From the NCBI GenBank assembly GCA_964640635.1, contig CAZXFD010000001.1:96163-160162 (forward strand): a stretch of DNA of 64,000 nt. Reading direction: 5' to 3'. The position numbers and the translations under genes were made by a program. This DNA is from an uncultured Gammaproteobacteria bacterium. GTDB lineage: Bacteria > Patescibacteriota > Patescibacteriia > UBA1558 > S5-K13. Each line of letters begins with the position of its first letter. Positions within the stretch are counted from its first letter, which is position 1. Shown here one piece after another: positions 7,424 through 54,192 of the stretch. The notes under the pieces were generated by a model, which did no database searches, had not been told where the DNA came from, and saw only the letters and a list, made by a program, of their open reading frames with translations.

Positions 7424-8434
7424 ATGAGCAAAAAATTACACATAGCATTATTTATAGTTATTTCACTAATAATTGTATTTGGGATTTATGAAACTTTGAA
7501 CAAATCAATGATAGAAGAGGTTATTGTCCCTACTAATATAATTAATTATCTTATTTCGCAAGAGGATGCGGCAAAATATTGCAATGGTGATAATATGGAT
7601 AGCATTGGATACCAAAAAACAATTACTATTTCAAAGTCTGTGGTGACTAAAGAAATTAACTCAACGAAGCTTGATGTAATCAAGCAAACATTAAGCATGG
7701 CAACGGAGGGCATGTGTAAAAGTGTTATAAGTAGTCTCGATATTACAGAAAAGGATGGGATTGTTTATATACCAGAGTTTGATGCTTGGGCAGGGGTATC
7801 AATAGTAATGTGTTATTGTAAACCTCAGATAGAGGTGAATTTACTTCAAATTCCAGGAATTACAAATGTTGTTTGGTCAAAGGCTGTAACTAATTTTGAA
7901 GAGTGTGTTTCTACTGGAAGTCCTGTGATGGAGTCATATCCAAGACAATGTAAATATGGGGATAAAAATTTTATAGAAGATGTTGGCAATGTATTAGAGA
8001 AAATAAATCTTATTCGTCTTGAAAATCCATTGCCAAATCAAGTTATTACTAGCCCACTTGTTATAAAGGGGCAGGCAAGAGGATTTTGGTTCTTTGAAGC
8101 AAGTTTTCCAGTTATGCTAGTAGATTGGGATGGTAGAATAATCTCTGAAGGGGTCGCAAATGCTAAGAGTGATTGGATGAGTGAGGAATTTGTTCCATTT
8201 GAGGCAACCCTTACTTTTGTAGTGGATAAAAATGTATATAGCAATAGAGGAGCATTAATTCTAAAAAAAGATAATCCATCAGGACTACCTAAAAATGATG
8301 ATGCACTTGAAATTCCTATTATATTTGCAACTGGATCTAGTGCTATTGCTTGCACTCAGGAAGCAAAATTATGTTCAGATGGCTCATATGTTTCTCGCTC
8401 GGGAGTAAATTGTGAATTTACAAAGTGTCCATAG
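7424..8434 (+). CDS. Secreted or membrane-anchored hypothetical protein
   Basis: N-terminal TM or signal segment. Cys-rich. No confident family assignment. Confidence 0.4.
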   Translation: MSKKLHIALFIVISLIIVFGIYETLNKSMIEEVIVPTNIINYLISQEDAAKYCNGDNMDSIGYQKTITISKSVVTKEINSTKLDVIKQTLSMATEGMCKSVISSLDITEKDGIVYIPEFDAWAGVSIVMCYCKPQIEVNLLQIPGITNVVWSKAVTNFEECVSTGSPVMESYPRQCKYGDKNFIEDVGNVLEKINLIRLENPLPNQVITSPLVIKGQARGFWFFEASFPVMLVDWDGRIISEGVANAKSDWMSEEFVPFEATLTFVVDKNVYSNRGALILKKDNPSGLPKNDDALEIPIIFATGSSAIACTQEAKLCSDGSYVSRSGVNCEFTKCP

Positions 8435-37374: not shown

Positions 37375-37398
37375 TATTTGTTTATACTTATATAAAGA

Positions 37399-37433
37399 AA
37401 AACACCCGCGCATTACACGCAGGTGTTTTTTTG
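37399..37433. terminator. Bidirectional hairpin terminator between rplA and the convergent lipoprotein gene
   Basis: AACACCCGCG...CGCAGGTGTT stem flanked by A-run and T-run. Confidence 0.55.
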
Positions 37434-37441
37434 TTAAATAG

Positions 37442-37876
37442 TTATTCAGGCGTTTTTATTCCCGCTTCTTTAATCGCGGGGCAGTCTCTTACAGTGTCTA
37501 ATATAAATTGTAATTTTGTTTTGTTTTCTAATAAAAGTCTTTTTCCCATTATTATATGCGTTGCCGAACAAGGGGAATTGATTTTAGAAAACTGAGCCAT
37601 ATCGAGAATTTTCATTGTATTGGGATCAACTGGAATACTCCATTGTTTTCCCGATACTTTTTTAGCATAGACACTTTCTTTCGACCACGTCTGATAGAGT
37701 ATTTCGAGACTATCGTATTGAGCAGAGCTAAGTTCCCACTCTGTAATACCAAGGATGAATGCATTAGTGCGTGTGTTTTCAATGCGTACGCCTTTATAAT
37801 AAAAGGTATCTCTTTGAGTACATCCAGTTATGATCGTTAACATGACGATCAATGCAAGAAATATCATTTTTATCAT
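37442..37876 (-). CDS. Putative lipoprotein on a higher-GC inserted cassette
   Basis: Signal peptide with lipobox LTIITGC. Minus-strand SD GGAGGA 5 nt before the ATG. GC content clearly above the flanking DNA. Confidence 0.55.
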   Translation of the reverse strand: MIKMIFLALIVMLTIITGCTQRDTFYYKGVRIENTRTNAFILGITEWELSSAQYDSLEILYQTWSKESVYAKKVSGKQWSIPVDPNTMKILDMAQFSKINSPCSATHIIMGKRLLLENKTKLQFILDTVRDCPAIKEAGIKTPE

Positions 37877-37989
37877 TTTTCCTCCTGAAAAAATATTATT
37901 TTATTTACTAAATTCTCTATTTTATTAAGAATATATTATAATAGCATATATGTAATATTGTGTCAAGTGTTAATTGTGGATAACTTATT

Positions 37990-38019
37990 ATGGGACCTGG
38001 ACCTAAAGTTAGTGTATAA
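37990..38019 (+). repeat. Direct repeat copy 2 (duplicated rplA 3' end, encodes MGPGPKVSV*), followed by a strong terminator
   Basis: ATGGGACCTGGACCTAAAGTTAGTGTATAA. Two silent or conservative differences from copy 1. Confidence 0.8.
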
Positions 38020-38035
38020 CATATTTCAAATGTTT

Positions 38036-38073
38036 GGGGCCTGACCCTTTTGGGGTCAGGCCCCTTTGTTTTT
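38036..38073 (+). terminator. Rho-independent terminator (12-bp GC stem GGGGCCTGACCC/GGGTCAGGCCCC then a T-run)
   Basis: Perfect 12-bp stem with TTTT loop, followed by TTTGTTTTT. Confidence 0.8.
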
Positions 38074-38138
38074 GGACTTGACCTTTTTTAAAAAGTCTGC
38101 TATATTCTGTTTAATAAAATAAAAAAGTGGAGGATACA

Positions 38139-38411
38139 ATGCTTACACACCAAGAAATTAAAAGCAAAATTACCCTGGAAAATGCTGATTCTAGCTGTTC
38201 CAGAGGTATGACAGTTACCAACTGTGTCGTGCTGGAGAGTGTTGAAGATATAAGCGGACATGACCTTGCTTATGTGCTGTCACAAGAATATCAGGACTGT
38301 TTTTGTATGTCTGCCCGGGAAGCCTATTTTCTTTTAAGAGTGGGCGCAGATACACAAAAACTTTACACGTATTTCACGTTAATTCAGCTTTGCGACAAAA
38401 AAGTCGCATAA
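38139..38411 (+). CDS. Hypothetical small cytoplasmic protein (~90 aa), higher-GC
   Basis: SD GGAGGA 4 nt upstream of the ATG at 38139 (the ORF track begins at a GTG at 38127). GC-rich codon usage unlike the host. Followed by a rho-independent terminator. Confidence 0.4.
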   Translation: MLTHQEIKSKITLENADSSCSRGMTVTNCVVLESVEDISGHDLAYVLSQEYQDCFCMSAREAYFLLRVGADTQKLYTYFTLIQLCDKKVA

Positions 38412-38428
38412 CACAAACCCTCATTTAT

Positions 38429-38454
38429 AGGCCATAGCAACATGGCCTTTTTTG
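38429..38454 (+). terminator. Rho-independent terminator after the small GC-rich ORF
   Basis: AGGCCAT-AGCAAC-ATGGCCT followed by TTTTTTG. Confidence 0.6.
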
Positions 38455-38486
38455 TTTGCCATAGTTTCAAATTATTGATAAAATAT

Positions 38487-38597
38487 TGTTAGCTACTTAG
38501 CGTGTTAGTTTCGTAGCTGCGTAGTTACGCAGCCTATTAGCTTCGTAGTTATATTATTATTTAATAATTGAATTTGGTTAAGAAACTACGTAGCTAA
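38487..38597. repeat. REP/BIME-like palindromic element cluster (TTAGCTTCGTAGTT ... CTGCGTAGTTACGCAG ... AACTACGTAGCTAA)
   Basis: Inverted arms TTAGCT(T/A)CGTAG around an AT-rich ~35-nt spacer plus an internal 16-nt near-palindrome. Immediately upstream of dCMP deaminase. Confidence 0.55.
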
Positions 38598-38618
38598 TTA
38601 GCTAATCAAACTAATAAC

Positions 38619-39143
38619 ATGGAAGAAAAAAAATACGATAGACCAACTTGGGATGAATATTTTATAAACATAACAGAAGAAGTAGCAAAAAGATCAAAGG
38701 ATCCATCAACAAAAACGGGTGCTGTTATAGTAGACAGTAAGCACAGACCTATATCTTTTGGTTATAATGGTTTTGTTGGAAACTGTGATGAATCCACCAT
38801 GTCATATGAGCGCCCAATAAAATATAATTTGATTATCCATGCTGAAATGAATGCTATTCTTTTTTCTAGACGAGATTTAGAAGATTGTATTTTGTATAGC
38901 CTTTACGCTCCTTGTGAAAATTGTTTAAAGCATATTATTCAGTCGGGAATAAAGCATATTATTTATAAAAATTTTGTTGTCGAAAGTAAGGCTGAACATA
39001 ATGAGGATTCTATGACAAACTCTGTTACTAATGAAGCGATTACAAGACTGCTATTATCTAGGCCCGACATAGATTGCCACAATGTTAATGGCGAAAGTTA
39101 TTTAAGAGAAATATGGGGAGATAAAATACCTAGCTTTCAATAA
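38619..39143 (+). CDS. dCMP deaminase (cytidine/deoxycytidylate deaminase family)
   Basis: HAEMNAI (H-A-E zinc motif) and PCENCLKHII (PCxxC). Confidence 0.8.
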   Translation: MEEKKYDRPTWDEYFINITEEVAKRSKDPSTKTGAVIVDSKHRPISFGYNGFVGNCDESTMSYERPIKYNLIIHAEMNAILFSRRDLEDCILYSLYAPCENCLKHIIQSGIKHIIYKNFVVESKAEHNEDSMTNSVTNEAITRLLLSRPDIDCHNVNGESYLREIWGDKIPSFQ

Positions 39144-42204: not shown

Positions 42205-42978
42205 TTGGAGGAAGGTAAAATGATTAAAGAAAAATTTGTCGTAATAGACGGTCTTGATGGAATTGGAAAGGGCACTGCAATAAGTGCTATTATTGATTTT
42301 TTATTATCACAAAATAAAAGAGTTTTGGACTTGGATAAATATTGGATTGATAAACATTTTCATCCAGATTTTGAAAATCCAAATTCTCCTTACTTTGTTG
42401 ATATTAATAGTTTTGATTTCATTGTTTCATCAGAGCCAACTTATTGCGGAATTGGTATGGCCATAAGGGATGAAGTTATTTCAAAAAATAGTAGAAAATA
42501 TTCAGCTAGATTTACAGCAGATTGTTATTCGCTAGATAGAGAAATACTTTATAAAAGAGTGCTTTTACCAGCACTAGAACTTGGTAAAATCGTTATTCAA
42601 TCAAGAAGTGTATCAACTTCAATAGCTTATCAATCTTTACAAGCAAAAGAAAGTAATGAAAGCTTAGGAGTTGATCAGATAATGGCGTTGGATGGAAATA
42701 GTTTTACTCTACTTTATCCTTTTGGACTCTTTATTATTCCAACCATAAAAGATGTATCTTCTCTTATGGAAAGACTCAGTAGTAGAGAAAAAAAAGATGA
42801 TTGTTCTTTTGAGAATATTGATTTTCAGCTCAAGCTTAAAGAAATTTATGAAAGCACTTGGTTTAGAGATGTTTTTGAAAGCAGAGGAGTAAAAATAGAA
42901 TACATCGATGCGAGTATCTCCATTGAAGAAACAAAGAAGCAGGCTCTAGATGTTTTTAGGAAGTATCTTGATATGTAA
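42205..42978 (+). CDS. Thymidylate kinase-like P-loop kinase
   Basis: VIDGLDGIGKGT resembles the Tmk P-loop (IEGxDGxGKST). Gene context with dut and the ThyX-like gene. Confidence 0.5.
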   Translation: MEEGKMIKEKFVVIDGLDGIGKGTAISAIIDFLLSQNKRVLDLDKYWIDKHFHPDFENPNSPYFVDINSFDFIVSSEPTYCGIGMAIRDEVISKNSRKYSARFTADCYSLDREILYKRVLLPALELGKIVIQSRSVSTSIAYQSLQAKESNESLGVDQIMALDGNSFTLLYPFGLFIIPTIKDVSSLMERLSSREKKDDCSFENIDFQLKLKEIYESTWFRDVFESRGVKIEYIDASISIEETKKQALDVFRKYLDM

Positions 42979-51049: not shown

Positions 51050-51451
51050 ATGAACAAAATAATAACATTTACTGACGGTGGTTCGAGAGGCAATCCAGGG
51101 CCTGCTGCAATAGGCGGTGTTTTATATGATGAAAATAAAAATCAAATTGACTCATTTAAAGAATGTATTGGAAAAACCACCAATAATCAAGCAGAATATC
51201 GTGCACTTCTTAAGGCACTAGAAATTGCAAAAAAACATAAAGCAGAAATAGTAGAGTGTTTCTTGGATAGTGAGCTTGTTGTAAAGCAAATGAAAAGAGA
51301 ATATAAGGTAAAAGATAAAGGATTGGCCATAATTTTTGTACAAATTTGGAATATTGTAATTGGTTTTAAAAAAATTAGCTTTCATCATATACCACGTGAA
51401 AAAAATCAAGAAGCCGATGCGCTTGTTAATGAGGCACTAGATAATGTTTAG
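51050..51451 (+). CDS. rnhA: Ribonuclease HI
   Basis: TDGGSRGNPGPAAIGGVL, catalytic DEDD pattern, ~133 aa. Confidence 0.85.
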   Translation: MNKIITFTDGGSRGNPGPAAIGGVLYDENKNQIDSFKECIGKTTNNQAEYRALLKALEIAKKHKAEIVECFLDSELVVKQMKREYKVKDKGLAIIFVQIWNIVIGFKKISFHHIPREKNQEADALVNEALDNV

Positions 51452-51501
51452 GATTTAGAGTTTAGTGGTTAGTATTTAGAGCTTATTAAAGATATTAAAA
51501 T

Positions 51502-51530
51502 AAAAAACCGATTTATTGATTCGGTTTTTA
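51502..51530 (+). terminator. Rho-independent terminator of rnhA
   Basis: AACCGATTTATTGATTCGGTT hairpin followed by TTTTT. Confidence 0.7.
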
Positions 51531-51540
51531 GATAAAATTA

Positions 51541-52912
51541 AAAGACCTCAACTGGATTGGATGGGTCTTTTTAAAATTTTCCAGAAGTCCTAAGGAGTCT
51601 AACGACGTGGCGGGCTGCACCTTTCGGTCGCGACTAAGCTTATTGTCGTTTAGAGTCCAAAAGGACTTCTGGATGGTCTTATCTGGGAATACTCTATCTA
51701 GAGGCATATTTCCTCGGCGTGAGGTTCCCAGAGACCTATGGTTTCTTTTATTAACCCCTCTAGTCAATTAGACTGCGGGGGTCGTTTCCTGAAGTCTCAA
51801 GGGGGCTTGTAAGCAATTTGCGTAAGCGAGGTGCGAATTCATCTATACGCTTATCGATTCAAGCCCCAAAGAGAACGGGTATTCAATTCACATTGGGTTC
51901 GGAGGACCCATTGGCCTTGGTCTGCTCTTTGCTGACACAGGCCTGACTTTTTTAAAGTCTTGGTCCGTTTGATCCAATATTGGACCAATGTGAACTGATT
52001 GAATTAGGGCGCCTTCGCAATACGATTCTCTAGCTCTTATCGGAGGTTTTAGTCCGATGAGCAATTGAGCGAAGGCGCCAGGGACAAGGGTCGCGTGTGG
52101 CCAAAACTGTGTTCGCACCAAGCTAGGTACGAAAGGGCGCTCTTAAGCATAAACCCTTAACAAATTTTTGACTAACACGCCGATCGGGGCCTATCTTACG
52201 GGACCGGTTTCGTTCATGGGTATTACCGTTATAAAAAACGGAGTTACCATGTCACAGCCGGCAAATTGGTAGGCGCCGTGGGTTTTTTCTGGAGAGCCCC
52301 CATAGCTATTTCTGAGTGCTATGGGGCGGGTTCATTAAGAACCTGCATGCACATATTATAGCGCTTTTCTGAGTCCCAACAAATTGTTGGGGGTGCGCTT
52401 TGTGCGTATGGGGGCGCCAGGGGTGTCTAATGATCTTCGCTAAAAACTCGAGAGTATTGAATAGACGCGAAGACAACAAGACGGGCGACAAAAGACAGTA
52501 CTCATGCTTCTGCAAACTCCCTTATGCAATGTGCTTTTGGGGGAAAGTGGAGTATATGAGGTATCTTTTGTCAAAAAAATTTTTCTATTCGGAATTTCCC
52601 CCAAGTCTCGGGGGCTTTATTTTATCTGAGACTAGGGCTGTCCACGTATGTTCATGATTACCTCCTTAAAGTTTTTTGATCAAGGTATACCGGCGGCGGG
52701 GTTACGGGCAGATCTTTAATTCCGGATGGTTGGCCATGGGTCTTCCTCGTGCATTCATGATACCTCCAGGGGTATTATGGGGCGGGTTATTCCTCATCTA
52801 CCAATCAACACCTATTCAATAATTGAATTTTGTTGATTTCGGATGAAGAATTAATCGCAGGATGATCACGACTCCTTAGTCAACTAATATTTCTGACAGA
52901 GGGAGTCTTTTT
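51541..52912 (+). ncRNA. Candidate large (~1.37 kb) structured non-coding RNA, unclassified; strand tentative
   Basis: GC clearly above the ~28% flanks and no ORF longer than 90 aa on either strand. Dense nested hairpins (51581-51690; 52008-52081 GGCGCCTTCGC/GCGAAGGCGCC; 52296-52331; 52362-52401). Internal repeated motifs. Three +-strand hairpin + U-run terminator-like ends (52262-52290, 52597-52625, 52868-52912). Sits between the rnhA terminator and the holB promoter. Confidence 0.4.
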
Positions 52913-53181
52913 TTCTTTATAACAGCAAGAAAGCTGTAGAAGAGTGGCTAAAATGGTAATTTGTTTATTTTCAAGGCACCAAAGATTAGCTCCTCTTAAA
53001 GAGTCTTCTACATTTTTCTTGCTGTTAATTTGAAGCGAATTGTTAATGTACAATAGAGCACTATAGCATGTCATAGAGTTCTTGTCAATAGTAGTTATCC
53101 ACAGCTCTAAATTGGTCTAGGATTAGATAGTTCCTGAACTTGGGGTAGTAATTTAACTCAAAATTTGCTATTCTTAAAAAT

Positions 53182-54192
53182 ATGGAAAAAGAAGATAGCC
53201 AAAATATGAATTGGCCTATTTTAGGACATAAAAACATAGTCAAGTATCTAGAAAGGCTTATAGAAAAACAAGACTTTTTGCATACATATTTATTTACTGG
53301 ACCTCGTGATATTGGCAAGAAAACAATGGCCGACCTTTTTGTGAAATCTATATTTTGCTCTGACAAAAACTCTATTCCATGTAATCATTGCAATGATTGT
53401 ATTGAAATATCCAAGTTTTCTCACCCAGATTATATATTTGTAGACAGAGAAGAGGGAAAGAAAAATATTTCAATAGAACAAGTAAGGGATTTTCAAAGTA
53501 GAATGTCTAGAACTCCCATGAGATCAAAATACAAAATTGGCCTCATAAACAACGCCGACTCACTCAACAAAGAATCTGCCAATGCACTACTTAAGACAAT
53601 AGAGGAACCAAGTAAGAGTTCTATGGTGATATTGATGGCAGAAAAAATAGAAAATATTTTGCCAACTATTAGATCTCGTAGTCAAAATATTATTTTTAAC
53701 AATGTTTCAGATAGTGAAATTTATGAACACTTAAAATCTCTTGGATCTAGTGGTGATATGGCGCAGGAGTTATCAAAGTTTGCTGGAGGATCTCCGGGGA
53801 TAGCACTCCATTATTTTAAGAATCAAGAAGATTGGAATGCTCAGAAGATTTTTTTGAATCAAATGCTTGAAATAATAGATAATCCTTTGAATGAAAAATT
53901 TTTTTGGGTAGAGAGCATGGTAAAAAAAATTGGAAGTAAAGATAATCAGTATTTTTATTTTGAAAATTTGTTGGATAATTATCTAAAGATTGTTAGAGAT
54001 TTAATTATCTTTAAGATAGATCCCGAGCTTGACCTTATACATAATTTTTTACAAAGCCCTGTTGCTAAGATTTCTAGAAAATATAGCTATGATGAACTTA
54101 TTTCTTTTTATAAAAATATTTTAAGTGCAAAAAAAATGATTTTTCAAAATGTAAATCCTAGGATTATTTTGGAAAATATTTTAATAATATAA
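53182..54192 (+). CDS. holB: DNA polymerase III delta' subunit
   Basis: HTYLFTGPRDIGKKTMA (degenerate Walker A) and Cys-rich zinc module CNHCNDC. AAA+ clamp-loader fold and length. Confidence 0.7.
   Translation: MEKEDSQNMNWPILGHKNIVKYLERLIEKQDFLHTYLFTGPRDIGKKTMADLFVKSIFCSDKNSIPCNHCNDCIEISKFSHPDYIFVDREEGKKNISIEQVRDFQSRMSRTPMRSKYKIGLINNADSLNKESANALLKTIEEPSKSSMVILMAEKIENILPTIRSRSQNIIFNNVSDSEIYEHLKSLGSSGDMAQELSKFAGGSPGIALHYFKNQEDWNAQKIFLNQMLEIIDNPLNEKFFWVESMVKKIGSKDNQYFYFENLLDNYLKIVRDLIIFKIDPELDLIHNFLQSPVAKISRKYSYDELISFYKNILSAKKMIFQNVNPRIILENILII

Follow-up and report, generated by a model that had tools for sequence, protein, structure and literature searches.

A Shine–Dalgarno-led seven-codon reading frame in a putative large structured RNA of a Candidate Phyla Radiation bacterium

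The 64,000-nucleotide (nt) stretch of contig CAZXFD010000001.1 analysed here in full (hereafter the window) carries two copies of a short motif at the right end of a guanine–cytosine (GC)-rich island free of open reading frames (ORFs), located between rnhA (51050-51451) and holB (53182-54192). On the + strand the motif resembles the 3′ terminus of 16S ribosomal RNA (rRNA), while on the minus strand it reads as a strong Shine–Dalgarno (SD) sequence followed by a start codon. The locus thereby raises the question of which strand is used, and what such a signal might do in a genome that otherwise hardly uses SD sequences. As detailed in the following, we favour with moderate confidence a reading in which the motifs would represent the SD sequence and start of a translated seven-codon mini-ORF that acts in cis and is present twice, as paralogous copies, within the 5′ third of a new large structured RNA made from the minus strand.

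Motif 1 was found on the + strand as TTCATGATTACCTCCTTAAAG at 52651-52671, exactly where the original prediction had placed it. The sequence of motif 2, TTCATGATACCTCCAGGGG, had likewise been given correctly, whereas its start at 52753 proved to be one base early, the motif spanning 52754-52772. Within motif 1, GATTACCTCCTTA (52656-52668) agrees with the 16S terminus GATCACCTCCTTA at 12 of 13 positions, as had been noted. The predicted minus-strand arrangement of a GGAGGT element and an ATG at functional spacing is also present twice, in the form of GGAGGTAATCATG (52665..52653, copy 1) and GGAGGTATCATG (52767..52756, copy 2). These open the two anticipated minus-strand ORFs, i.e. MNIRGQP* (mini-ORF 1, ATG AAC ATA CGT GGA CAG CCC TAG, 52655..52632) and MNARGRPMANHPELKICP* (mini-ORF 2, 52758..52702). 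All ORFs at the motifs are tiny, with lengths of 7-18 amino acids (aa).

The resemblance to 16S rRNA carries little weight by itself. Searching for GATCACCTCCTTA with up to two mismatches returned 4 matches where 1.07 were expected, a number reached in 3 of 100 shuffles, and by our own estimate a match with at most one mismatch is expected ~0.08 times in 128 kb. The bare 13-mer match to the 16S tail is thus near chance and weak evidence alone, and the 15-nt repeat TTCATGAT(N)ACCTCC is not significant on its own either, falling inside the shuffle range. The motifs are lifted above chance by three observations taken together: TACCTCC occurs in the 64 kb at the two motif sites only, GGAGG precedes just 1 of the 58 gene starts in the window, and the complete unit is kept in three other genomes with mostly synonymous changes. 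A fragment of rRNA was rejected as the source, as an Rfam scan of the whole window at gathering thresholds gave 0 matches and a scan of 51300-53250 at E<10 gave chance microRNA and small RNA matches only. Apart from the 12 of 13 positions shared with the anti-SD tail, the locus differs from a 16S 3′ end in that it bears no similarity to helix 44/45 or to any small-subunit (SSU) rRNA model, and copy 2 lacks the tail context, having only ATACCTCC. A match of this kind is what the complement of an extended SD sequence (AAGGAGGTAATC) would be expected to give.

The rarity of such sequences in front of genes is not specific to GGAGG. Any SD-like 4-mer was found before 3 of the 58 starts, the upstream regions being A/T-rich. 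Inside genes GGAGG is common, with 36 occurrences on the + strand versus 13 of CCTCC. A perfect SD sequence at this locus is consequently to be seen either as a special-purpose signal or as foreign baggage.

Six versions of the island were compared, all from a few metagenome-assembled genomes (MAGs). Beside the window, to which a further sequence (L020) is 100% identical, these are W2 (L019 plus L001), with a HolB 96% identical to that of the window; L002, from Candidatus Komeilibacteria S5_K13, the closest named genome, and L006, both with 87% for HolB; K2 (L012 merged with L005), with 60%; and K3 (L016), which was obtained from a metagenome scan. A contig 100% identical to the window occurs in sample SRR10083310. 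The other two of the three metagenome pattern matches (L017 and L018) were dismissed as chance matches inside coding DNA. The unit GGAGGT-N3-4-ATG followed by the seven codons M-(N/S)-(I/A)-R-G-(Q/R)-P is present twice in the window and once each in L002, L006 and W2. The motif conservation that the original prediction had put up as a check was thus confirmed for these three loci, and fails for K2 and K3, where the motifs are absent. In all five copies the ATG follows GGAGG after 4-5 nt, and none of them has lost the SD sequence, the ATG or codon 4, 5 or 7. The codon used for Arg-4 is CGT, CGA or CGG, and that for Arg-6 is AGA or CGA.

Copy 1 of the window (SD and spacer GGAGGTAATC) is orthologous to the L002 copy. 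In L002 and L006 the SD sequence and start codon are kept as GGAGGTAACATG, with GGAGGTAAC as SD and spacer and ATG AGT ATT CGG GGA CAG CCC TAG (MSIRGQP*) as the reading frame, which amounts to 4 nucleotide changes relative to the window, 3 of them synonymous. Copy 2 (SD and spacer GGAGGTATC, then ATG AAT GCA CGA GGA AGA CCC ATG..., MNARGRPM...) is orthologous to the single copy in W2 (L019 ~5170), which reads GGAGGTAATCATG across SD and start codon (GGAGGTAATC as SD and spacer) and continues ATG AAT GCA CGT GGA CGA CCC ATC..., MNARGRPI.... When these two orthologous pairs are taken together, the ORF frame leaves 5 of the 6 within-lineage substitutions synonymous, compared to 0/6 and 1/6 in the other frames (P=0.005 for random placement). 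Codon 7 is followed by a stop or by unrelated sequence, and in mini-ORF 2, where conservation is limited to the first 7 codons, the homology between window and W2 ends at 52736, directly after codon 7, with W2 reading MNARGRPIISLTSFRI* instead. A ~125-nt segment with copy 2 (52666..52790) is missing in L002 and L006, while its right part (from 52736) is present in W2. A simple tandem duplication was rejected as the origin of copy 2, as the units share only ~25-30 nt and have separate orthologs in W2 and L002. Separately, an exact 13-nt direct repeat, TATGGGGCGGGTT, was observed at 52320-52332, in a hairpin of the island core, and at 52776-52788, just upstream of the second SD sequence in the minus sense, which hints that the copy-2 segment was partly patched together from core sequence.

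The conservation pattern has to be set against the view that the SD–ATG pairs are vestigial, i.e. the leftover 5′ end of a decayed, horizontally acquired gene that used SD sequences, persisting through a constrained RNA or DNA element or through recent recombination between lineages. Degenerated tandem gene starts had been among the original options. The small size of all ORFs (7-18 aa) and the mosaic interior of the island suit this explanation, as do other strong SD-led starts in another inserted island of the window (37876..37442, minus strand, and 38139) and the behaviour of the rnhA–holB gap as an insertion hot spot, with 38 nt in L007 and L008 and other ORFs in L009 and L002. Against it, this very frame is the one in which 5 of 6 within-lineage changes are synonymous, and SD, ATG and codons 4, 5 and 7 have stayed intact in five copies while the sequence past codon 7 is unrelated. 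Neither was residual similarity to protein families found in six frames, nor is a long ORF retained at this position in any lineage. Decayed starts consequently fit the codon pattern poorly, and we regard this origin as possible, if rather unlikely.

The island in which the mini-ORFs would reside is larger and more unusual than the GC-rich region originally described. The enrichment is real, with 46% GC (0.462) in the island versus 30.5% (0.305) in the genome, but the wider context, a conserved and structured RNA-like island, had been missed. A hidden or decayed protein gene was rejected as its content: each of the six frames contains 23-30 stops per 510 codons, no Pfam match was obtained, and no ORF is common to the window-type sequences and K2/K3. 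No tRNA or transfer-messenger RNA (tmRNA) gene was found. Known RNAs were likewise rejected, since Rfam returned none at gathering thresholds in the window and no meaningful match at E<10 for the island or at E<1 for K2 (L012 and L005), K3 (L016) and L006. The island is nevertheless constrained. Its column identity to L002 is 0.88, as compared to 0.53-0.74 for fourfold-degenerate sites of six flanking genes, showing that it is under purifying selection.

The nature of this constraint is suggested by the predicted fold. Folding z-scores computed in 200-nt windows over 51500-52500 range from -3 to -7 on both strands; across the motif segment itself they are ~0. In the strand-neutral structure, 8 of 253 predicted pairs are changed on both sides and still paired, while shuffles gave 3.2±1.3 (0 of 500 reach 8) and slid controls 0-1, a result to be read with the caveat that the sequences are few and that the structure was derived from those same sequences. 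Indels in the island are not multiples of three, and some delete hairpin tips. At the holB side, a three-way-junction hairpin, denoted I1 (52920..53027, 108 nt), is the most conserved element of the locus, with 39 pairs, of which 4 show compensatory changes, and no broken pair in the main stems. Only one copy exists in the window, Rfam gives no match for it, and in relatives its model matches the syntenic position alone. Together with the divergent promoter region upstream of holB it makes up the most conserved non-coding stretch of the locus (52920-53110), which is nearly identical between window and L002 and retains 74-77% identity to K2 and K3. At the rnhA side, a "left" domain (51575..51700) comprises the helices P1 (51580-51591 with 51662-51673) and P2 and an inner hairpin, P1 and P2 covarying between the window type and K2/K3. 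On the minus strand, to which both elements are assigned, I1 would be the 5′ domain of the RNA and the left domain its 3′ domain. Between them lies the GC-rich, strongly structured core (51700..52596), which is mosaic or unalignable between lineages. Common to all six versions are the terminator hairpin described below, the adjoining ~125-nt rnhA-side domain and a ~190-nt holB-side block. The interiors of K2 and K3 cannot be aligned with the window, and largely not with each other, but still fold well (z down to -7.7). A distinct ORF-free island under purifying selection, with thermodynamic structure and covariation, is what a generic large structured non-coding RNA (ncRNA) would display, and the island is probably a previously undescribed ~1.5 kb folded ncRNA of a Candidate Phyla Radiation (CPR) bacterium.

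A different explanation holds that island and motifs form no functional RNA at all, constituting a DNA-level or selfish element such as a mobile-element remnant, with the similarities stemming from recent transfer. The patchy distribution and variable insertion site agree with this, and so do an interior that is mosaic even where the HolB proteins of two genomes are 96% identical, insertion sequence (IS)-like elements adjoining the island in relatives, and wobble pairs that prefer neither strand. Such an element is nonetheless difficult to reconcile with fold z-scores down to -7 in three lineages whose interiors are unalignable, with double substitutions that preserve pairing, or with a promoter that carries the signature of selection. 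The island has no transposase and no terminal repeats of its own, is present as a single copy, and has no matches in phage, plasmid or viral collections. We consider this explanation very unlikely. An origin in phages, plasmids or viruses was itself rejected, as blastn gave no matches in phages or plasmids and exact patterns none in viral contigs. The idea that a multi-copy repeat caused the contig breaks was dropped as well, island and I1 being single-copy in the window.

Assignment of the transcribed strand relies on the signals at both ends of the island. A sigma-70-type promoter with an extended -10 element, TTGACA, 17 nt, TGc TATAGT, lies on the minus strand at 53060..53088 and agrees with the consensus at 11 of 12 positions in addition to the TG; transcription is predicted to start at ~53052, which places the mini-ORF units 290-390 nt downstream of the promoter. 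Among the six sequences the -35 element and the TG (always TGC) are invariant. The -10 element reads TATAGT, TATGTT, TATATT, TATCAT or TATGCT, its variation being confined to positions 4-5, the least critical ones. Such a pattern is the signature of a working promoter, which would drive transcription leftwards through I1 and the island. The opposite end carries hairpin 2 (51544-51567), which together with the adjacent U-run (51531..51567) forms a putative minus-strand terminator. In L002 its minus-side T-run is retained (TTTTTTATTT) and that on the + side lost, and no + strand gene precedes the hairpin there. Because of the conserved promoter, this minus-side U-run, and sums of folding z-scores that favour the minus strand in three lineages, we infer a minus-strand RNA of ~1.5 kb in the window and ~0.9-1.4 kb in relatives.

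Several observations weigh against a translated unit on a minus-strand RNA. Two terminator-like hairpins specific to the + strand bracket the motifs: T1 (52597..52625), CCCCC-AAGTCTC-GGGGG followed by a T-rich run, and T2 (52870..52914), GACTCC...GGGAGTC followed by T7, the stem of which covaries (GGCTCC...GGGAGCC in L002). Each is terminator-like in the + reading only. One-sided helix changes give G.U pairs 13 times on the + strand versus 13 times on the minus strand, in addition to 12 other mismatches, and a second strand-neutral scan ties at 4 versus 4. Minimum free energies (MFEs) are lower on the + strand, and two local hairpins around the motifs show G.U pairs in the + reading only. The codon test is based on six substitutions. 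The unit is absent from the more distant K2 and K3, and is therefore not essential to the RNA; nor is there a regulated downstream gene in the window, W2, K2 or K3. Finally, the ribosome of an SD-poor lineage may not use SD sequences at all; the anti-SD motif was reported for only 48% of Parcubacteria 16S genes (PMC9297842), and the 16S gene of this genome lies outside the window. Counts of GNRA and UNCG tetraloops and loop composition are ambiguous as to strand.

The strand-related points would be accommodated by a + strand RNA in which CCUCC forms anti-SD-like, C-rich loops, located either in a small RNA or in a stretch between T1 and T2 by which a + strand core RNA is extended at its 3′ end, and pairing with GGAGG-like sequences in mRNAs or with GGAGG of the island itself at 51901 and 52042. 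In addition to the flanking terminators and the lower MFEs, + strand folds, for which structure prediction had been called for originally, place CCUCC in or next to hairpin loops; the stems concerned (UGAUUA/UGAUCA and CAUGAUACC/GGUAUUAUG) are those with G.U in the + reading only. A C-to-T change of L002 in the palindromic hairpin between T2 and the mini-ORFs (52803..52838) gives U.G on the + strand, and C is the rarest unpaired base there. However, W2 does not keep the hairpins, L002 has lost the GGAGG at 51901, and neither the left edge of the island nor the stretch from T1 to the motifs shows a recognisable + strand promoter. The genome is nearly devoid of SD-bearing targets, holB itself lacking an SD sequence, and the period-3, synonymous-type variation would be left without a reason. 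A + strand RNA of this kind therefore appears distinctly unlikely. The notion of a 16S 3′-end mimic or anti-SD element, put forward originally, is not supported, for similar reasons: no SSU rRNA similarity, few SD sequences to sequester, and no + strand promoter found. Sequestration in cis by the + strand was rejected in particular, with holB downstream having no SD sequence (ttcttaaaaatATG), 57 of 58 starts having no GGAGG, and the motifs being separated from holB by T2. A conserved hairpin sequestering the SD sequence on the minus strand was also rejected. The predicted pairings differ between window and L002 and, by reading of the sequence, are not kept in W2, where only a 3-bp equivalent of the window hairpin is seen.

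Returning to the seven-codon mini-ORF on a minus-strand RNA, the following course of events may be proposed. The RNA would run from the promoter (53088..53060) through I1 and the GC-rich paired core to the 3′ domain and the terminator hairpin (~51535), encoding no protein conserved across its lineages. The mini-ORF would most likely be translated. A ribosome would be recruited by an SD sequence that is exceptional in this SD-poor genome, read the seven codons, and then terminate (copy 1) or continue into unconserved codons (copy 2). What is useful would probably be that translation takes place, or that the ribosome pauses at R-G-x-P, with an effect in cis. This could serve as a roadblock against 5′-to-3′ decay or remodel the adjacent fold.

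Among known systems, the closest analogy would be with a leader or arrest mini-ORF, or with a 5′ stabiliser, that is placed inside a large ornate RNA. With leader and arrest mini-ORFs (the ermC, cat and cmlA leaders, SecM and RAPP-like peptides) it has in common a very short ORF, led by a strong SD sequence of its own, in the 5′ part of the transcript, as well as peptide conservation limited to a few codons, the unit ending in Pro before a stop or arbitrary sequence. In its R-x-x-P spacing the unit is reminiscent of the arrest cores RAGP, RAPP and RGPP (PMC12992588, PMC10951233). The cores at this locus, RGQP and RGRP, do not belong to the RAPP-like family, whose cores are RAPP, RGPP, RAPG or RAGP (PMC12992588). 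Further differences are that the peptide is only 7 residues long, the host RNA is a ~1.5 kb structured ncRNA, and the host genome is otherwise devoid of SD-led initiation. Of the features of a leader-peptide attenuator, SD spacing and codon-aware conservation (in a small sample) were found, while a downstream ORF and mutually exclusive hairpins were not. The original option of leader peptides on a minus-strand transcript thus gains from the conserved promoter and the 5 of 6 synonymous changes, but not in the form of a classical leader, as there is no downstream gene to regulate and conserved alternative hairpins are lacking.

The STAB-SD of cryIIIA and the stalled-ribosome stabiliser of ermC are 5′ stabiliser elements of Gram-positive mRNAs, the STAB-SD being located near the 5′ end without a start codon at functional spacing. 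Here, too, a perfect SD sequence lies upstream, and by analogy a bound 30S subunit or ribosome could shield the downstream RNA from 5′-to-3′ decay, which would explain why the SD sequence and the first codons alone are conserved. Unlike in STAB-SD, an ATG is positioned 3-4 nt after GGAGGT, and the unit is 290-390 nt away from the predicted transcription start. Dual-function RNAs such as RNAIII/hld, SgrS/SgrT and SR1/SR1P encode peptides of 26-43 aa with their own functions. Like these, the island would combine a structured RNA with a small ORF predicted to be translated, but conservation is limited here to 7 codons, and the RNA exceeds those RNAs several-fold in size. The island as a whole resembles OLE, GOLLD and ROOL (PMC12286853) in being a long (>0.5 kb), GC-rich, ORF-free and heavily paired island in an AT-rich genome, with its own putative promoter and terminator. 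It gave no relevant covariance-model match to OLE, GOLLD, ROOL, HEARO or raiA (E<10 for the window; E<1 for K2, K3 and L006). It also departs from OLE, GOLLD and ROOL in its greater length (~0.9-1.5 kb), in that its ends alone are conserved around a mosaic interior with an SD-led mini-ORF inside, and in its narrow distribution among few Komeilibacteria-like MAGs.

The mosaicism is most evident between close relatives. Despite a HolB identity of 96%, homology between window and W2 is restricted to 300 nt at the left (89%), a block of 120 nt (77%) and 360 nt at the right (93%). Two window segments, 51750-52065 and 52180-52736, are replaced in W2 by shorter, unrelated, GC-rich sequence (L019 4707-4897 and 5015-5150). 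L002, more distant than W2, retains the window-type interior at 83-88% identity. Because W2 shares only parts of the island in spite of its near-identical HolB, the comparison implies that the core evolves by segment replacement, presumably through recombination or cassette-like exchange inside the island. The gap between rnhA and holB measures 38 nt in the more distant L007 and L008, and is occupied by other genes in L009 and L014; judged from these arrangements, the island is therefore a lineage-specific insertion at a variable site.

Other insertions were observed beside the island. An IS-like element with terminal inverted repeats (~GCACATACATnTGnCGGTTT) has inserted next to it in two relatives (L019 5507-5559 with L001 1-54; L015 tail with L006 1-29). 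The target in W2 is AGTT, just upstream of the minus-strand -35 element, and that in the L006/L015 genome is AGATT, to the left of the island; in L003, foreign sequence ends at the same TTATCCACAG site. The assembly breaks at the locus are attributed to these insertions. An ORF of 323 aa, whose N-terminus resembles a signal peptide (MKKMIFIIMSVCLFAGLVAQ...) and for which Pfam gave no match, is found in L002 (3410-4381, minus strand) and in the L006/L015 genome (L015 3269-4240). It is placed between rnhA and the island on the minus strand, downstream of the putative terminator of the island, and is absent in the window, W2, K2 and K3.

A few further SD-led frames were noticed. Two of the few others lie in a second inserted region of the window (37380-38620), which is flanked by an L1 gene and a gene for a deaminase: a lipoprotein-like 144-aa ORF (37876..37442, minus strand; caGGAGGaaaaATG) with a strong TTGACA-17-TATTAT promoter, and a 90-aa ORF from 38139 (+ strand; GGAGGATACAATG), neither with a Pfam match. 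The same region contains a GC-rich hairpin (GGGGCCTGACCCC...GGGTCAGGCCCC). The sequence GGAGGAAGGTAAAATG at 42207-42222 suggests that the ORF listed as 42205..42978 with a TTG start may begin at ATG 42220 behind an SD sequence, in which case it would be another rare SD-led gene. In K2 (L012 ~7465-7478, + strand), GGAGGAATCGTATG opens a ~30-aa ORF (MWALFSKAPFEVLYRCPNHGGIAMTAGGF) unrelated to the heptapeptide and on the opposite strand. It is hence probably a coincidence, but illustrates that SD–ATG pairs can arise by chance in GC-rich sequence.

If the favoured reading is correct, the locus would represent a new family of large structured RNAs from the CPR, whose ncRNA repertoire is almost unknown, with an unusual architecture in which strongly conserved 5′ and 3′ domains frame a GC-rich core that changes fast and recombines. 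In its boldest form, which we deem a long shot, a new RNA class of ~1-1.5 kb in Komeilibacteria-like CPR would have gained, in one sub-lineage, an SD sequence and a stall-prone heptapeptide (M-N-x-R-G-x-P), making the RNA one of very few partners of the 16S anti-SD in a cell whose mRNAs have given up SD-led initiation. It could then sense or soak up free anti-SD or 30S subunits, or employ a parked ribosome for its function. Should the motifs be decayed gene starts, the finding would be an ordinary one, with the island still an ncRNA candidate, and interest is limited by a narrow distribution (six sequences, few MAGs). In Bacteroidetes, retained SD sequences are regulatory exceptions (PMC7797042). 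If true, the seven-codon unit would be a natural SD-led and peptide-constrained ORF in a setting where ~98% of the gene starts in the window have no SD sequence, and would thus bear on what the 16S anti-SD still does in SD-poor lineages.

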